From: Bacillales bacterium
Lineage (GTDB): Bacteria > Bacillota_I > Bacilli_A > RF39 > UBA660
Assembly (NCBI GenBank): GCA_016290885.1
Contig: JAEEVN010000002.1
Location: 2,489-66,488, forward strand
Length of the DNA stretch: 64,000 nt
Direction: 5' to 3'
Position 1 is the stretch's first letter, and every line of letters begins with the position of its first letter. Both the position numbers and the translations under genes were made by a program. Under the pieces are notes generated by a model, which ran no database searches, was not told where the DNA came from, and worked only from the letters and a program-made list of their open reading frames with translations. Of this stretch, positions 40,611 through 44,083 are shown one piece after another.

Positions 40611-41771
40611 ATGAAAAGAATAAAAAAGATCTTTATATTATTATTTTTTATTTTGCTATTTATGCCTTTAACAACAGCAAAAGCATATAATGATGCTACA
40701 TGTGCAGATGTTATTGATGCTGTTGCTGAATTAGACGATATAGATGAAATGTATGATGAATTAGACTGTGATAATGCCTCAAGTAATTCTAATATGCACA
40801 AGTGTAATAATTTGATAATTAAAAAGGCATCAGTTCTAGAAGAAATATTTGAATATAATGCAGAAAAAGTATGTCCTTCTATAGATTTATCTGAAATAAT
40901 AGATGAATATTCTGATGATTGTAGTAATAAATTTAGTTCAGAAATAAAGAATTATGCAGATGGTGTAATGAGATTATTCTTCGTGGCTGCACCATTTATA
41001 ATAATTATATTTGGTAGTTTAGATTTCTTTAAGATGATCACTTCAAGTGATCCAAAAGAAGTAAAGAAGAGTAGAACTAATTTCATAAGGAGACTTGTAG
41101 CATTTGGACTTTTATATTTAACACCATTCATAGTACAATTCCTATTCTCATTAACCCCATATAATATTAATGGAAATAACTTTGTATGTTCACAAGAATT
41201 AATATTGGTCCCAAAGACATCAGTTGGAGAAATCTCTGGTATATATGGTGGAAATAATTATGGTGGTAATGGTCAAAAGATAGCGGATGCTGCCAAAGAG
41301 TTAATAGAATATGCTCATGATAATGGGTTCACATATAATTGCCCAGGATTTACTACGTTCACAGCTTTTTCAAGTGCAAATACAGGAAAAATTATATGCT
41401 GTGCGACTCTAGCAAGTAATGCAATATATAAAGCTGCTCCTGATGATGGATTTGGATTAGCTGCAGGATTTAAAAAGTCAGGTTGTAGTATAGATTCTGC
41501 ACCTGGTCTTGCTATGACACTTGATGCAATGGGATGGGAACTTATTACAGATAAAAGTGAGTTAGAACCCGGAGATATAGTCTTCTTCAAGAGAGATTGC
41601 TGTACTTTAGTATCAGTAAGAGGTAGACCAGCAATATATCCAGGACATGTTGAAGTATATGCAGGCGATGGAAAAACATATTCTGCAGGAAAAACTCAGA
41701 ATATAATAGATGAAATTGATTATCTTGATAAAGACGTATTTGCTTTTGCATTTAGAGTTCCAAGTAAATAG
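40611..41771 (+). CDS. Secreted/membrane protein: signal peptide, Cys-rich segment, VirB2/TrbC-like two-TM hairpin, C-terminal NlpC/P60- or CHAP-like papain-fold cell-wall hydrolase domain
   Basis: Signal peptide MKRIKKIFILLFFILLFMPLTTAKA. TM1 LFFVAAPFIIIIFGSL, basic loop KEVKKSRTNFIRR, TM2 LVAFGLLYLTPFIVQFLF. Hydrolase motifs IICCATLASNAIYKA, PGDIVFF and PGHVEVYAG. ATG 40611 follows a GAGG SD. Confidence 0.75.
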   Translation: MKRIKKIFILLFFILLFMPLTTAKAYNDATCADVIDAVAELDDIDEMYDELDCDNASSNSNMHKCNNLIIKKASVLEEIFEYNAEKVCPSIDLSEIIDEYSDDCSNKFSSEIKNYADGVMRLFFVAAPFIIIIFGSLDFFKMITSSDPKEVKKSRTNFIRRLVAFGLLYLTPFIVQFLFSLTPYNINGNNFVCSQELILVPKTSVGEISGIYGGNNYGGNGQKIADAAKELIEYAHDNGFTYNCPGFTTFTAFSSANTGKIICCATLASNAIYKAAPDDGFGLAAGFKKSGCSIDSAPGLAMTLDAMGWELITDKSELEPGDIVFFKRDCCTLVSVRGRPAIYPGHVEVYAGDGKTYSAGKTQNIIDEIDYLDKDVFAFAFRVPSK

Positions 41772-41782
41772 TGAGGTGCAAA

Positions 41783-42562
41783 ATGATTAAGAATAAAAAG
41801 AATATTATGATTTTAATTTTATTACTTGTGGCATTCTACCTTGTCATTACCATTATTTTTTCGCTACCTAAAGGAAAAAAATATAAAAATACAGCTTTTA
41901 TTGGAGATTTTACAAAAGTTGAGGTTAAGTCAGGAATAATTAATGTTTACAATAATAATGAATTTATTGATAAACAAAGCGCAAAATTCTGTTTCAAAAA
42001 TGAAGAGATTGACGGATCTATTTTAACACGAGATAGTGGTTCTAATGGTGGGGACTATTCATACTACGCATTAGATAAAAAAGGTAACGTTCTTGATTTT
42101 GATTTAGGTATGTTTGGTTATACTGCAGATATGGACTTGAAATTTAAAAAAACAGAGTATGCATACATAAAAGATTCAAATGAAGTACGTGAATTTTGCA
42201 AACAAAACAACATTGCTATTGGAGAGAATACAAATATTGAACAAATAGTTGTAAATAATTTTGATGTAGATGATGATAATAACAACGAAGACATATATTC
42301 TGTTGGGCTTATCGAAAATGAAAATAAATATAAAAGTTTTGTATTCATGTCAAAAGATGGAAAATATTATCTTATTGATCAAGCAGAAAGTGATTACAAT
42401 AGTGTTAATGGAATAAGATTTAGATTTACCTTTTTAGTAGATTTTAATAAAGATGATAATTATGAATTTGTCGTTAGAAAATCTATGAGTGAATACGGGC
42501 CAAATTATTATGAGTTATATAATTTTGATGGTAATACATTTACTAAGTTAGGGGGAGAATAA
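41783..42562 (+). CDS. N-terminally membrane-anchored extracytoplasmic protein, unknown function
   Basis: One TM (IMILILLLVAFYLVITIIF), then a beta-rich domain with Asp/Asn-rich FG-GAP-like motifs (NNFDVDDDNNNEDIY, VDFNKDDNYEFVV). The start follows the upstream stop by 12 nt, with a GTGAGGTG SD. Confidence 0.65.
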   Translation: MIKNKKNIMILILLLVAFYLVITIIFSLPKGKKYKNTAFIGDFTKVEVKSGIINVYNNNEFIDKQSAKFCFKNEEIDGSILTRDSGSNGGDYSYYALDKKGNVLDFDLGMFGYTADMDLKFKKTEYAYIKDSNEVREFCKQNNIAIGENTNIEQIVVNNFDVDDDNNNEDIYSVGLIENENKYKSFVFMSKDGKYYLIDQAESDYNSVNGIRFRFTFLVDFNKDDNYEFVVRKSMSEYGPNYYELYNFDGNTFTKLGGE

Positions 42563-42563
42563 T

Positions 42564-43436
42564 ATGTGTGATAGAAGTTCAGTACTTGTTATTTTCTTAA
42601 TCCTAAAGATATTAATCTTATTAGTTTTACCAATTACAGTATATGTTTTATATAGAAGAAATCATCCGTTATATAAAGTAGTAGGTATTGCAAATGTTTT
42701 CTTCATTCTATTACTTATAATATTAAAATTAACTGGTAATGCATGTGTTAATAATTCTAATTTTTTCTACATTAAATCTAATGAAGTGGATTTAGACTAT
42801 ATATCAGAGAATCCTAATACATTATATGAATCTGTTTACTCAACAGATAAGTATTTTTATCAGGATAATAGAAATGCATATTATTATGATATTAATACTG
42901 CTCCTTTAAAAAATGTATCTCTTTCTTGCAATAAGAAAAGCTATATGGAACATTATGGTAATGGAATATCTGCAATTACAACATTAATTGCAAATTATTA
43001 TGATATTGATATCAATATGATTGATGTATTAGCATTCTTAGAAGATAAAAATCTTATTGATTGCAATAATGGAATAGATTTTAATAAAGCATTCATTTTT
43101 CTTGGAGAAATGTATAATTATAGAGTAAAAGAAATATATTCTTCACAAATAGATAGCTATATTTCTAATGGACGCAGTGTATTAGTAGAAACTACTAATA
43201 AGGCTAATGAAACTAATAACTTTGGTTGTGAGAAAGATTATATAGTAATCTATAATAAAACAAATGACGGAACTTACAATATAATTAATCCAAATGATCA
43301 ATATGAATCTTATTTCTGCCCAAGCAATACTATTGGGTATAGTAGCATAATAGAGGGTAACCAAAACGAAAAATCATATACCTTGGATAATATTAATGCT
43401 AAAGCTTTAAGATACTTTGTAATTGAGGTGGAATAA
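42564..43436 (+). CDS. Two-TM membrane protein with an extracytoplasmic peptidase-C39-like domain that appears catalytically inactive
   Basis: Two N-terminal TM helices. The C39-like pattern reads HYGNGISAITTLIANYY where active members have NGCGP. DYIVIY..T.DGTYNIINP sits where active members have H.VVV.G....DP. GGGGGAG SD; 1-nt gap from the upstream stop. Confidence 0.6.
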   Translation: MCDRSSVLVIFLILKILILLVLPITVYVLYRRNHPLYKVVGIANVFFILLLIILKLTGNACVNNSNFFYIKSNEVDLDYISENPNTLYESVYSTDKYFYQDNRNAYYYDINTAPLKNVSLSCNKKSYMEHYGNGISAITTLIANYYDIDINMIDVLAFLEDKNLIDCNNGIDFNKAFIFLGEMYNYRVKEIYSSQIDSYISNGRSVLVETTNKANETNNFGCEKDYIVIYNKTNDGTYNIINPNDQYESYFCPSNTIGYSSIIEGNQNEKSYTLDNINAKALRYFVIEVE

Positions 43437-44083
43437 TGAAAAAGATTAAATTTATTATATTAATATTAATTGTATTTCTTTTTGCAGGTTGTTCCGGAGA
43501 TTATAATCTAAAATTTAATAGAGATCTATCTATTGATGAAGATATTGATATCTTAATTGACAATAAAGATAATGCTTATGAAAATACATTTATGTTATTT
43601 GAAAAAGCTGATATCGATGCAGATAAATATGACATAATGTTAAAAGGAGATAAGGTTAGAATTATTTATAAAGAAAAATACAAATCATTTGAAGACTATT
43701 ATTTAAATAGTAAATTATATAGATTATTATTTAAAGAATTAGAATTAAGTAGAACTAATTCAGGTATGTTTATTAATACAGAATCTAATTTTAAATTAGA
43801 TGATAGTAATAATCAAAATATAATTAATTCTTATGATATAGATGATTTAAAAATAAATATTACTATGCCTTTTAATGTTATTGAAAATAATGCTGATGAA
43901 GTAAAAGATGATACATATACATGGGTATTAAATAAGAATAATACTTATAAAAATATAAGAGCAAGATATGATTATGAAAATGATAGAGTTCCAAGTATTG
44001 TTTTAATGGTAGTAATTGGAGTAATATCTTTTGGAATTATAATTTACCTTGCAGTTTATTTCCTAAGAAATAGAAAGATATAA
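43436..44083 (+). CDS. Lipoprotein with an additional C-terminal TM anchor (LppM/DUF3153-like architecture)
   Basis: Lipobox LFAGC, a roughly 165-aa extracytoplasmic domain, and C-terminal TM IVLMVVIGVISFGIIIYLAVYFL followed by RNRKI. ATG overlaps the upstream TAA (TAATG). Confidence 0.7.
   Translation: MKKIKFIILILIVFLFAGCSGDYNLKFNRDLSIDEDIDILIDNKDNAYENTFMLFEKADIDADKYDIMLKGDKVRIIYKEKYKSFEDYYLNSKLYRLLFKELELSRTNSGMFINTESNFKLDDSNNQNIINSYDIDDLKINITMPFNVIENNADEVKDDTYTWVLNKNNTYKNIRARYDYENDRVPSIVLMVVIGVISFGIIIYLAVYFLRNRKI

Follow-up and report, generated by a model that had tools for sequence, protein, structure and literature searches.

What might four genes for exported, membrane-anchored proteins, one of them with a putative cell wall hydrolase domain, be doing between hpf and secA? 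The question is raised by a 64,000-nucleotide (nt) stretch of contig JAEEVN010000002.1 from a Bacillales bacterium, referred to here as the window. On the + strand of the window, an operon at 40611-44083 consists of four tightly spaced open reading frames (ORFs), g1 to g4, flanked by hpf and secA. A preliminary description of the DNA had seen in it a compact operon of extracytoplasmic membrane-anchored proteins, and the ORFs, their junctions and their co-conservation all agree with this. The locus is a strain-level recombination mosaic with swappable enzyme heads. Its parts come from known families (T4SS_pilin, NlpC/P60, C39_2 and the LppM fold), and the operon as a whole belongs to no system described so far. 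As had been supposed, the four genes do not occur together in a described pathway, and no description of the cluster was found in the literature searched.

A recombination mosaic between hpf and secA

The g1 protein consists of a signal peptide, a Cys-rich segment, a hairpin of two transmembrane helices and a papain-fold hydrolase head (Table 1); alignment, profiles and topology all bear out this layout, which had been read from the sequence before. A separate profile of the Cys-rich N-domain matches all cluster loci. The head is exchanged. In three g1 homologues (P0032-34), similarity to g1 is limited to its first 56-60%; they join the g1 N-module to a C39_2-type head (motifs GCC...SRHF...DSWDG). 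The head of P0033 is 44% identical to that of L024, a related locus, and the L024 and L025 proteins pass the Pfam cut-off for C39_2 (PF13529). The genes for P0032-34 occupy the same hpf-secA site and are followed by a divergent g2-family gene, g3 and g4. C39_2-type heads also replace the NlpC/P60-type head in loci L039, L041, L049 and L050. Those of L049 and L050 are canonical (SGCALTS...HYVAV...DP), and the partner in L050 is a distant g2-family member (hhalign probability 95%). In L047, a C39_2-type head precedes an NlpC/P60-type one. Three head classes are found at the same hpf-secA site; the alternative heads of sister strains are genuine members of Peptidase_C39_2 (PF13529) or close to it, and they keep the Cys/His motifs. 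Whatever the head type, a g2-family gene lies directly after the last enzyme gene in every cluster locus. Copy number varies as well. There are two enzyme-partner pairs in L006 (3926-7979), L041 (372-4295) and L042 (369-4193), and two enzymes with one g2 in L047 (3341-6729).

The edges of the exchanged segments are sharp. L041 and L042 have flanking DNA that is 97.7% and 93.2% identical; between the flanks, the head, g2 (33% identity) and the 5' third of g3 have been replaced. Their g1 proteins are near-identical for ~215 residues and unrelated directly after the motif GxYGGNNxG. Compared with g1 of the window, P0001 has a head that is 98% identical behind N-terminal segments of 73-79% identity, and P0004 and P0005 have N-terminal segments of 70-86% identity in front of heads of 31-34%. 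Strains in which murA is 98-100% and hpf 99-100% identical to those of the window have head/g2 identities (in %) of 98/96 (L045), 35/42 (L044) and 39/41 (L046). The g2 gene is exchanged together with the head in L044, L046 and L039 relative to the window, and the DNA similarity of the window to L044 and L046 ends at ~41300. In a sliding DNA comparison, the window and L045 are 97-100% identical except in three sharp blocks: a tagO-like gene upstream (69-87%), the g1 N-domain and hairpin (80-86%), and the g3 hairpin (42500-42800; 73-75%). The tagO alleles do not follow the head alleles.

Covariation was computed across 19 loci, and partial Mantel tests were applied. It falls into two blocks. One comprises the g1 N-module and hairpin, the g3 ectodomain and g4 (rho 0.67-0.76). 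The other comprises the head, g2 and the g3 hairpin (rho 0.50-0.76); here, the head and the g2 N-half are correlated at rho = 0.54, and the g2 N-half and the g3 hairpin at rho = 0.67. The partial Mantel p is 5e-4 for the pairs head-g2, head-g3 hairpin and g2 N-half-g3 hairpin. Between the head and the N-module of the same protein there is no correlation (rho = 0.12).

Outside a single uncultured group of gut and rumen Bacilli, the operon was not found. All members of the four families are unnamed metagenomic proteins: g1, g2 and g4 account for 42, 41 and 76 clusters among 5.8 billion sequences, and g3 for 52 representatives among 1.84 billion sequences. The complete block is present in five species representatives of the GTDB genome set, named 'Bacilli bacterium' or 'uncultured Firmicutes', and lies invariably between hpf and secA in GTDB species representatives. 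Because this first sample was seeded with g1, a second, unbiased scan was seeded with hpf. The cluster is present in 5/5 loci with an hpf of at least 66% identity and usable downstream DNA, and in 0 of ~75 loci with an hpf of at most 62% identity. As it is also present in every g1-seeded locus, the four genes can be said to be co-conserved in relatives. In the group with the more distant hpf, secA follows hpf directly, or 1.5-3.7 kb of unrelated strain-variable cargo lies between them. Such cargo in sister lineages implies that the gap is an accessory-gene hotspot, apparently one of insertion, and not the strictly housekeeping context for which the preliminary description took it. Across loci whose secA is 82-93% identical, the cluster proteins are 27-62% identical.

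The cluster is not compositionally foreign, since the window has ~26% G+C throughout and the operon does not depart from its surroundings. There are no relatives of g1 in 72,556 plasmids or 50,697 phage genomes by tblastn, and none in IMG/VR by a profile-seeded scan. A PHROGs search gave marginal tail-lysin matches only, to the g1 head. Insertion of a prophage or plasmid was rejected on these grounds and on the native G+C.

Domain families and the link to type IV secretion

Hydropathy places the transmembrane helices of g1 at amino acids (aa) 115-144 and 161-182, with 5-6 Lys/Arg residues in the loop between them. The pattern of signal peptide, two helices and basic loop is conserved in the family alignment, and would leave the N-domain and the head both outside the cell. 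The topology predicted from sequence likewise puts the functional domains of g2, g3 and g4 on the outer side of the membrane. Judged from its sequence, the hairpin is a member of the type IV secretion system (T4SS) pilin family module and not a generic anchor. PF18895 (T4SS_pilin) matches 21 of the 26 g1-family members (best E = 4.9e-9). With 20.4 bits (E = 5.5e-4), the window protein stays under the cut-off of 26.6; it matches NCBIfam NF045849 (Mbov_0395, 'pilin-like conjugal transfer protein') at E = 0.01. The hairpin is 35-55% identical to stand-alone pilin-like genes beside VirB4 in L013 and L028, and its profile also matches stand-alone and fused ORFs elsewhere in these genomes.

Both L013 (3578-11043) and L028 (5935-13027) contain a chromosomal locus of the type found in integrative and conjugative elements (ICEs) of Mollicutes. 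It lies beside housekeeping genes, encoding a SpoU-family methylase in L013 and RNase R in L028. Two to three pilin-like genes are followed by a gene for an MMCAP2_0566 / Mbov_0396-like membrane protein and by VirB4. The latter is of the Mycoplasma-ICE type (NF045975, Mbov_0397 family; E = 8e-109) and is split in the same way in both loci, into three ORFs of ~101, 195 and 597 aa. No relaxase or coupling protein was seen in the examined stretches of L013 and L028. L013 and the cluster locus L005 come from the same metagenome-assembled genome (MAG), so the operon and the VirB4 locus co-occur in one genome. Profiles of g2, g3 and g4 have no match at T4SS loci. Within the operon there are no ATPase genes, as described earlier. 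Pfam, NCBIfam and VirB4 searches of the operon and the whole window found no VirB4 ATPase, VirB6-like channel or coupling protein, and the window has no Mbov_0396-like gene.

Hairpin modules also occur at other sites. A paralogous module in L024 (2760-8178) and L014 (1759-7156) lies between rplQ and ecfA, in a ribosomal-protein region, and is a second instance of such modules in core-gene neighbourhoods. It encodes a protein with Cys-rich, hairpin, Cadherin-like and C39_2 parts, a second protein of ~940 aa with a hairpin and NlpC/P60, and a member of the g2 family. The 284-aa and 84-aa genes that come after this module were considered as analogues of g3 and g4, and rejected; their products are acidic and have neither transmembrane segments nor profile matches. 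L025 (1342-7023) encodes four consecutive hairpin proteins. Their N-terminal ~190 residues are 75-84% identical and their C-terminal parts differ; one head is a Pfam-positive C39_2 and one is weakly NlpC/P60-like.

VirB2-type pilins have been stated not to occur in Gram-positive T4SSs, Patescibacteria excepted (PMC12857230). Arrays of sequence-variable pilins are essential in Patescibacteria (PMC12857230; 10.1101/2025.01.22.634366). The uncultured Bacilli lineage has stand-alone pilin-like arrays beside VirB4 despite this stated absence (PMC12857230), and these paralogues, beside Mbov_0396-like and VirB4 genes, mirror the Patescibacteria arrays (10.1101/2025.01.22.634366; PMC12857230). The pilin-like proteins of monoderm T4SSs (PF18895; NF045849 of the Mycoplasma ICE; VirB2-like proteins of Patescibacteria) share with g1 the signal peptide, the two helices and the basic loop. 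However, T4SS pilins are small and stand alone (about 100-150 aa), whereas the 386 aa of g1 include an ectodomain of 83 aa in front of the hairpin and a head of 164 aa behind it. T4SS pilins also lie beside VirB4/VirB6-type genes, whereas g1 is found away from T4SS genes and together with three non-T4SS proteins. Compared with T4SSs of the MPF_FATA and Mollicutes-ICE types, the operon has the core genes only at a separate chromosomal locus in related genomes. The pilin hairpin has been reused as an anchor for swappable papain-fold enzymes, both in the operon and in the modules beside ribosomal-protein genes.

The head of g1 has C264 (in a CCAT motif) and H346 (in a GHVE motif), which are invariant among 26 g1-family sequences. 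Its PDB profile matches are weak (7cfl, E = 0.0058; the Tn916-like hydrolase 9ubf, E = 0.48). The head profile finds, at E down to 1e-31, the C-terminal parts of proteins of 750-1300 aa encoded in other gut Firmicutes MAGs, and matches the C-terminus of a 763-aa protein of L011 at E = 2.8e-26. The L011 protein passes the Pfam cut-offs for NLPC_P60 (26.3 bits vs 23) and Phage_lysozyme, and adjoins a T4SS_pilin/TrbL_4 protein. The link of the head to NlpC/P60 is therefore transitive, because the head profile leads to the L011 C-terminus and the L011 protein to Pfam. The closest kin of the head are NlpC/P60 domains of bifunctional lysozyme and NlpC/P60 proteins, beside T4SS_pilin/TrbL-like genes. 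The head most likely cuts peptidoglycan peptides. A membrane-anchored extracytoplasmic NlpC/P60-type head is common to g1 and the wall hydrolases of T4SSs (CwlT of ICEBs1, PrgK, TcpG and the Tn916 Orf14 type). Unlike the CwlT/PrgK/TcpG type, g1 lacks a muramidase domain and has a pilin-type hairpin instead of a single transmembrane helix; its head is swapped for C39_2 between strains, it has a co-varying partner gene, and it lies outside a conjugation cluster. Assignment to a known system is thus possible in part and for g1 only, through its T4SS-pilin hairpin and its T4SS-linked hydrolase kin. A sporulation, competence or complete conjugation module was rejected, as g2, g3 and g4 have no such Pfam or NCBIfam assignment.

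The g2 protein had been described as type II anchored and beta-rich with FG-GAP-like loops. The predicted structure agrees with this (Table 1), and matches to FG-GAP_3 are weak (6 of the 27 members, best E = 0.0049), with FG-GAP matching 2 of the 27. In the hypervariable N-half (aa 30-150), the 27 sequences fall into 25 types at 60% identity; the conserved C-half has two DxDxDG-type loops, FDVDDDNNNEDIYS and VDFNKDDNYEFVV. Foldseek found no fold match at E <= 1e-3 in PDB or BFVD, and no match to a beta-propeller. Three candidate identities were discarded. A VirB8/TcpC-like (NTF2) protein does not fit the all-beta model or the absence of PDB and BFVD matches at that threshold; the DDB1 propeller matches that might suggest a full beta-propeller have template-modelling (TM) scores of at most 0.2; and the match to ComEC_MAG0480 (E = 0.0025) was discounted because it is limited to the transmembrane region.

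For g3, a two-transmembrane protein with a C39-like domain lacking catalytic residues had been proposed. The hairpin stands and the C39 likeness is weak. None of the 29 family members has a Pfam match. The g3 profile reaches a Pfam-positive C39_2 head weakly in hmmsearch (E = 0.0026), and hhalign against C39_2 heads gives E = 0.0014 (probability 18%) and 7e-4 (26%) over 126-142 columns. The ectodomain aligns along its whole length to the C39_2-type heads of sister loci. In these alignments the position of the catalytic Cys is N/G (in a GNxIT motif) and that of the His is D or variable, so that, in contrast to Peptidase_C39_2, g3 has no conserved Cys or His at the catalytic positions; it is also Pfam-negative, and linked to the family at E ~1e-3. 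That the ectodomain is an inactive C39-like domain is plausible but weakly supported. A PDB profile match to DDB1 (E = 6e-4) is short, covers one strand-rich stretch and has nothing else in its favour; it was put down to chance. The g3 hairpin was also rejected as a detectable pilin-family member: the g1 hairpin profile misses it, and hhalign of g3 against g1 gives a probability of 3%.

The g4 protein is a lipoprotein with a C-terminal transmembrane anchor, as first described, and its fold can now be named. The top Foldseek match is the folded domain of Mycobacterium tuberculosis LppM (2nc8; E = 2.7e-7, probability 1.0, TM scores 0.49/0.59). G18 and C19 of the lipobox are invariant in the family. 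Against Pfam LppM (PF21946), g4 scores 18.7 bits, under the cut-off of 27, and weak matches are found in 12 of the 34 family members (best E = 7.7e-4). LppM (Rv2171) has a lipobox Cys and a C-terminal transmembrane segment as in g4, and is reported to bind phosphatidylinositol mannosides (PMC5217060). The two proteins have the same predicted fold and the same architecture. However, their sequence relationship is marginal, they come from different phyla and different gene contexts, and the binding of phosphatidylinositol mannosides has no known counterpart in g4.

Possible roles of the operon

We tentatively favour the possibility that the operon encodes a polymorphic, surface-tethered peptidoglycan hydrolase and a cognate restraining partner, for interactions with other cells. 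The g1 protein would be exported by Sec and held in the membrane by its VirB2/T4SS-pilin-type hairpin with both ends outside. There it would display the Cys-rich N-domain and a papain-fold peptidase head, which is of the NlpC/P60 type here and of the C39_2 type in other strains. The head would cleave peptidoglycan peptides. The g2 protein, membrane-anchored and with calcium-type loops, would most likely bind and restrain the head in the manner of an immunity protein or inhibitor, and this restraint would spare the producer's own wall. Specificity could reside in the surface of its hypervariable N-half, with the conserved calcium-loop C-half as scaffold. The g3 and g4 proteins would probably be a more constant scaffold, joining g1 and g2 in one membrane complex. 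The target may be the walls of other cells at close contact, or another interaction under diversifying selection. Since near-identical strains exchange the head, g2 and the g3 hairpin en bloc, such uses are likelier than routine wall growth. The preliminary description had suggested a fixed peptidoglycan-remodelling machine; with swappable heads in a mosaic locus, the likely role shifts to that of a polymorphic surface enzyme and its partner.

Polymorphic toxin-immunity systems include CdiA-CT/CdiI, Rhs and LXG toxins, and the Tae/Tai amidase effector-immunity pairs of the type VI secretion system. The Tae effectors are wall amidases of the NlpC/P60 superfamily, neutralised by a partner outside the cytoplasm. 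In population-genetic terms, the operon has the signature of such an effector-partner cassette. It resembles these systems in its conserved N-module, joined at a short motif to a variable C-terminal enzyme domain, in the adjacent small gene that is co-replaced, in its tandem extra pairs, and in the sharp boundaries between near-identical strains. It differs in that g1 is embedded in the membrane and the operon shows no evident machine for its delivery, that the partner stays one homologous family across head families, and that g3 and g4 are also in the unit. If a restrained hydrolase of this kind is correct, Gram-positive gut bacteria would deploy wall hydrolases against or among close relatives in a previously undescribed way. 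The g2 protein, with a confidently predicted fold unmatched among solved or viral structures, would represent a new class of hydrolase partners.

Several points weigh against this interpretation. The g1 protein is fixed by two transmembrane helices and the operon encodes no export ATPase, so that the head has no evident route to another cell. A single homologous g2 family accompanies heads of different peptidase families, whereas classical immunity proteins usually switch family along with the toxin, and L047 has a C39-type enzyme without a separate g2. Physical linkage alone could yield the covariation of the head, g2 and the g3 hairpin, which are contiguous DNA. Presence in all five loci of the unbiased lineage sample is more universal than for most toxin loci and fits a core role. 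As for the enzyme, g1 of the window matches Pfam NlpC/P60 weakly (E = 0.14), with weak matches in 7 of the 26 family members. The family alignment has no conserved third catalytic residue; any of N, T, S, D and G may occupy the position aligned to the third His of 7cfl.

A core role is the substance of the next reading, which is less likely than the first: g1 would be the producer's own membrane-tethered D,L-endopeptidase for wall growth or division, and g2-g4 would regulate it in a self-directed autolysin complex. FtsEX-controlled hydrolases (CwlO, PcsB, RipC) are extracytoplasmic wall hydrolases governed by membrane partners. The operon would be comparable with FtsEX-CwlO or FtsEX-PcsB in having a predicted wall hydrolase and membrane partners encoded alongside, and unlike them in having no ABC-type (ATP-binding cassette) ATPase, no coiled-coil adaptor, a membrane-embedded enzyme and strain-level cassette exchange. 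Allelic diversity would then come from pressure by phage or host on the exposed domains, or from adaptation to the wall chemistry of each strain. The predicted topology, in which the enzyme is anchored in the producer's membrane and faces its own wall, points this way, as do the invariant catalytic Cys and His, the constant site of the block in hpf-seeded and g1-seeded loci alike, and its own conserved promoter and tight junctions. A nearby wall-polymer gene, the tagO-like one, shows allelic replacement too, but its alleles do not track those of the head. A switch of head between NlpC/P60 and C39_2 in near-identical strains is unusual for an essential growth hydrolase; nor does such a role sit well with the variable number of enzymes and partners or with the divergence of the cluster proteins beside a well-conserved secA. 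If the complex is nevertheless an autolysin, its tethering and control without an ATPase would be unusual, and it would be a clear case of mosaic evolution inside single genes.

It is unlikely that g1 is an accessory of a T4SS. Its hairpin would have to insert in or near a VirB6/VirB4 machine encoded elsewhere, where the head would open the producer's wall locally (the role of VirB1, CwlT or PrgK) for the apparatus or a pilus-like structure. The operon never adjoins T4SS genes and the window contains no VirB4-like gene, yet the hairpin is paralogous to pilin-like genes directly 5' of the Mbov_0396-like and VirB4 genes in L013 and L028, and the nearest relatives of the head also have T4SS_pilin/TrbL-like neighbours. 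The MAG shared by L013 and L005 is consistent with such a role, but co-occurrence with a T4SS locus is seen in that one genome only, the profiles of g2, g3 and g4 never match T4SS loci, and a wall-opening helper has no obvious need of swappable heads with cognate partners.

Less likely again, the pilin-type hairpins may be assembly modules, by which the T4SS of the lineage builds g1-type proteins into or onto a VirB2-type filament and presents their heads to neighbours. The T4SS (VirB4, the Mbov_0396-like protein and the pilin arrays) would extract g1-type proteins from the membrane; the heads would serve killing, wall breaching or epibiotic feeding, and g2 would shield the producer. If so, a T4SS pilin scaffold would for the first time be seen to carry a polymorphic effector family, and there would be evidence for VirB2-type pili in a Gram-positive lineage outside Patescibacteria. 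Finally, a variable recognition, mating-exclusion or phage-receptor/decoy module with secondary enzymatic activity, like the co-varying exclusion pairs of conjugative elements, is very improbable: sharp replacement blocks do lie in exposed or membrane parts (g1 N-domain and hairpin, g3 hairpin, tagO), the N-half of g2 is hypervariable, and g4 is a lipoprotein as are several exclusion proteins, but there is no similarity to known exclusion or receptor proteins in Pfam, NCBIfam and PHROGs searches, and the strictly conserved dyad of the NlpC/P60-type heads and the Cys/His motifs kept in the C39_2-type ones imply that catalysis is under selection.

Operon signals and neighbouring genes

The features of the operon are collected in Table 1. 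The lengths of g1-g4 are reproduced by independent gene calls on identical public contigs. Full-length homologues of each gene are found in the same order in more than 20 other contigs (profile E = 1e-20 to 1e-114), so the four are not chance ORFs. The spacer between g1 and g2 is 11 nt, not 12 nt as given in the preliminary description, because the ATG of g2 is at 41783 and not at 41784. The 1-nt spacer between g2 and g3 and the 1-nt TAATG overlap of g3 and g4 had been reported correctly, and a GAGG-type Shine-Dalgarno sequence lies 5-7 nt 5' of the start of each of the four genes, in line with the good sites claimed for them. These close junctions are preserved in homologous contigs.

The TATAAT box that had been taken for the operon's own promoter is invariant in 9/9 aligned related loci, some of which have an hpf of only 75-77% identity. 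The hairpin behind hpf is also retained in 9/9 related loci; the version in L010 has a different stem sequence. At the 3' end, the terminator described as strong is a real hairpin, with equally good folding in 2 of 200 shuffles, but a modest one. Being AU-rich, it fell below the criterion of the consensus terminator scan, which demands at least 3 G-C pairs. A riboswitch or other known RNA element in the region was considered and rejected, as a scan at Rfam gathering thresholds gave the signal recognition particle (SRP) RNA only. This small bacterial SRP RNA is at 21893-21978 of the window (RF00169, 53.7 bits) and is the sole Rfam family in the 64 kb.

Table 1. Coordinates of the genes, domains and signals of the operon in the window.
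Feature	Position	Strand	Details
hpf terminator, hairpin and T-run, separating hpf from the operon	40547-40566	+	sequence scan; -10.5 kcal/mol, z = -3.4
TATAAT -10 box, operon's own promoter	40584-40589	+	scan match; -35 = TAGACT, spacing 17 nt
g1	40611-41771	+	386 aa
g1 signal peptide, aa 1-25, ends AKA before Y26	40611-40685	+	hydrophobic aa 2-26; family-conserved MKRIKK...A-x-A
g1 Cys-rich extracytoplasmic N-domain, aa 26-108	40686-40934	+	conserved C31, C53, C65, C88, C104 in family alignment
g1 T4SS-pilin-like two-helix hairpin, aa 109-185, basic cytoplasmic loop	40935-41165	+	PF18895 profile; hydropathy
g1 linker ending in conserved G-I-Y-G-G-N-N-Y-G motif, recombination junction	41166-41276	+	L041/L042 breakpoint directly after motif
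g1 NlpC/P60-type papain-fold hydrolase head, aa 223-386, swappable	41277-41771	+	catalytic C264, H346 invariant
g2	41783-42562	+	259 aa
g2 single-pass (transmembrane aa 4-32) all-beta ectoprotein	41783-42562	+	AlphaFold2 predicted local distance difference test (pLDDT) 89, predicted TM score (pTM) 0.81
g3	42564-43436	+	290 aa
g3 N-terminal two-transmembrane hairpin and linker, aa 1-99, invariant K15	42564-42860	+	hydropathy topology; varies with cassette
g3 ectodomain (~190 aa), probable degenerate C39_2-like	42861-43436	+	invariant C222, Y230, C252; weak profile links
g4	43436-44083	+	215 aa
g4 LppM-fold lipoprotein, lipobox LFAGC (Cys19), C-terminal transmembrane anchor aa 183-212	43436-44083	+	AlphaFold2 pLDDT 75; hydropathy
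Operon terminator, 9-bp AU-rich hairpin and U-run	44082-44110 (stem 44082-44104)	+	-8 kcal/mol, z = -3.4 vs shuffles

The surroundings of the operon also differ between strains and lineages. The tagO-like Glycos_transf_4 gene, at 38855-39937 and two genes 5' of the operon, shows allelic replacement relative to L045. The murA and hpf proteins of L045 are 100% identical to those of the window and the tagO-like glycosyltransferase is only 72% identical; the drop in DNA identity, at 38900-39950, has sharp edges. In L001 (2000-3597) and L002 (1421-3030), SpoIID and Peptidase_M23 genes lie between rpiB and the tagO-like gene. Between the tagO-like gene and hpf, L002 has an agr-type quorum-sensing set (AgrB, LytTR regulator, histidine kinase) and L001 a histidine-kinase-type gene. 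The window has none of these SpoIID, Peptidase_M23, agr-type and histidine-kinase genes upstream of hpf, so variation across the lineage extends to the region 5' of hpf. In a sister lineage (hpf ~60% identical), the hpf-secA gap of L063 (6529-9710) and L087 (6529-8513) holds unrelated, cytoplasmic-looking genes, and this cargo differs although the hpf and secA translations are almost the same.

Directly 3' of secA, L039 (7996-9915) has a gene for a 524-aa protein with a weak match to a transglutaminase core (papain-like), followed by one for an Imm33-family immunity protein. The two are a possible toxin-immunity pair beside the locus. In the window, the gene after secA (46709-48004) encodes a 431-aa protein. 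Its counterpart in L036 has a Pfam inositol-monophosphatase match, and the protein has ~170 C-terminal residues beyond the typical monophosphatase length.

Farther upstream, at ~11640-12164 of the window, the sign of the GC skew and the gene orientation switch near 12 kb. A 462-aa ORF from 12164 precedes ORFs of 640 and 825 aa, and their placement suggests that the three are dnaA, gyrB and gyrA. If so, the replication origin would lie ~28 kb upstream of the operon, and the operon would be co-oriented with replication.

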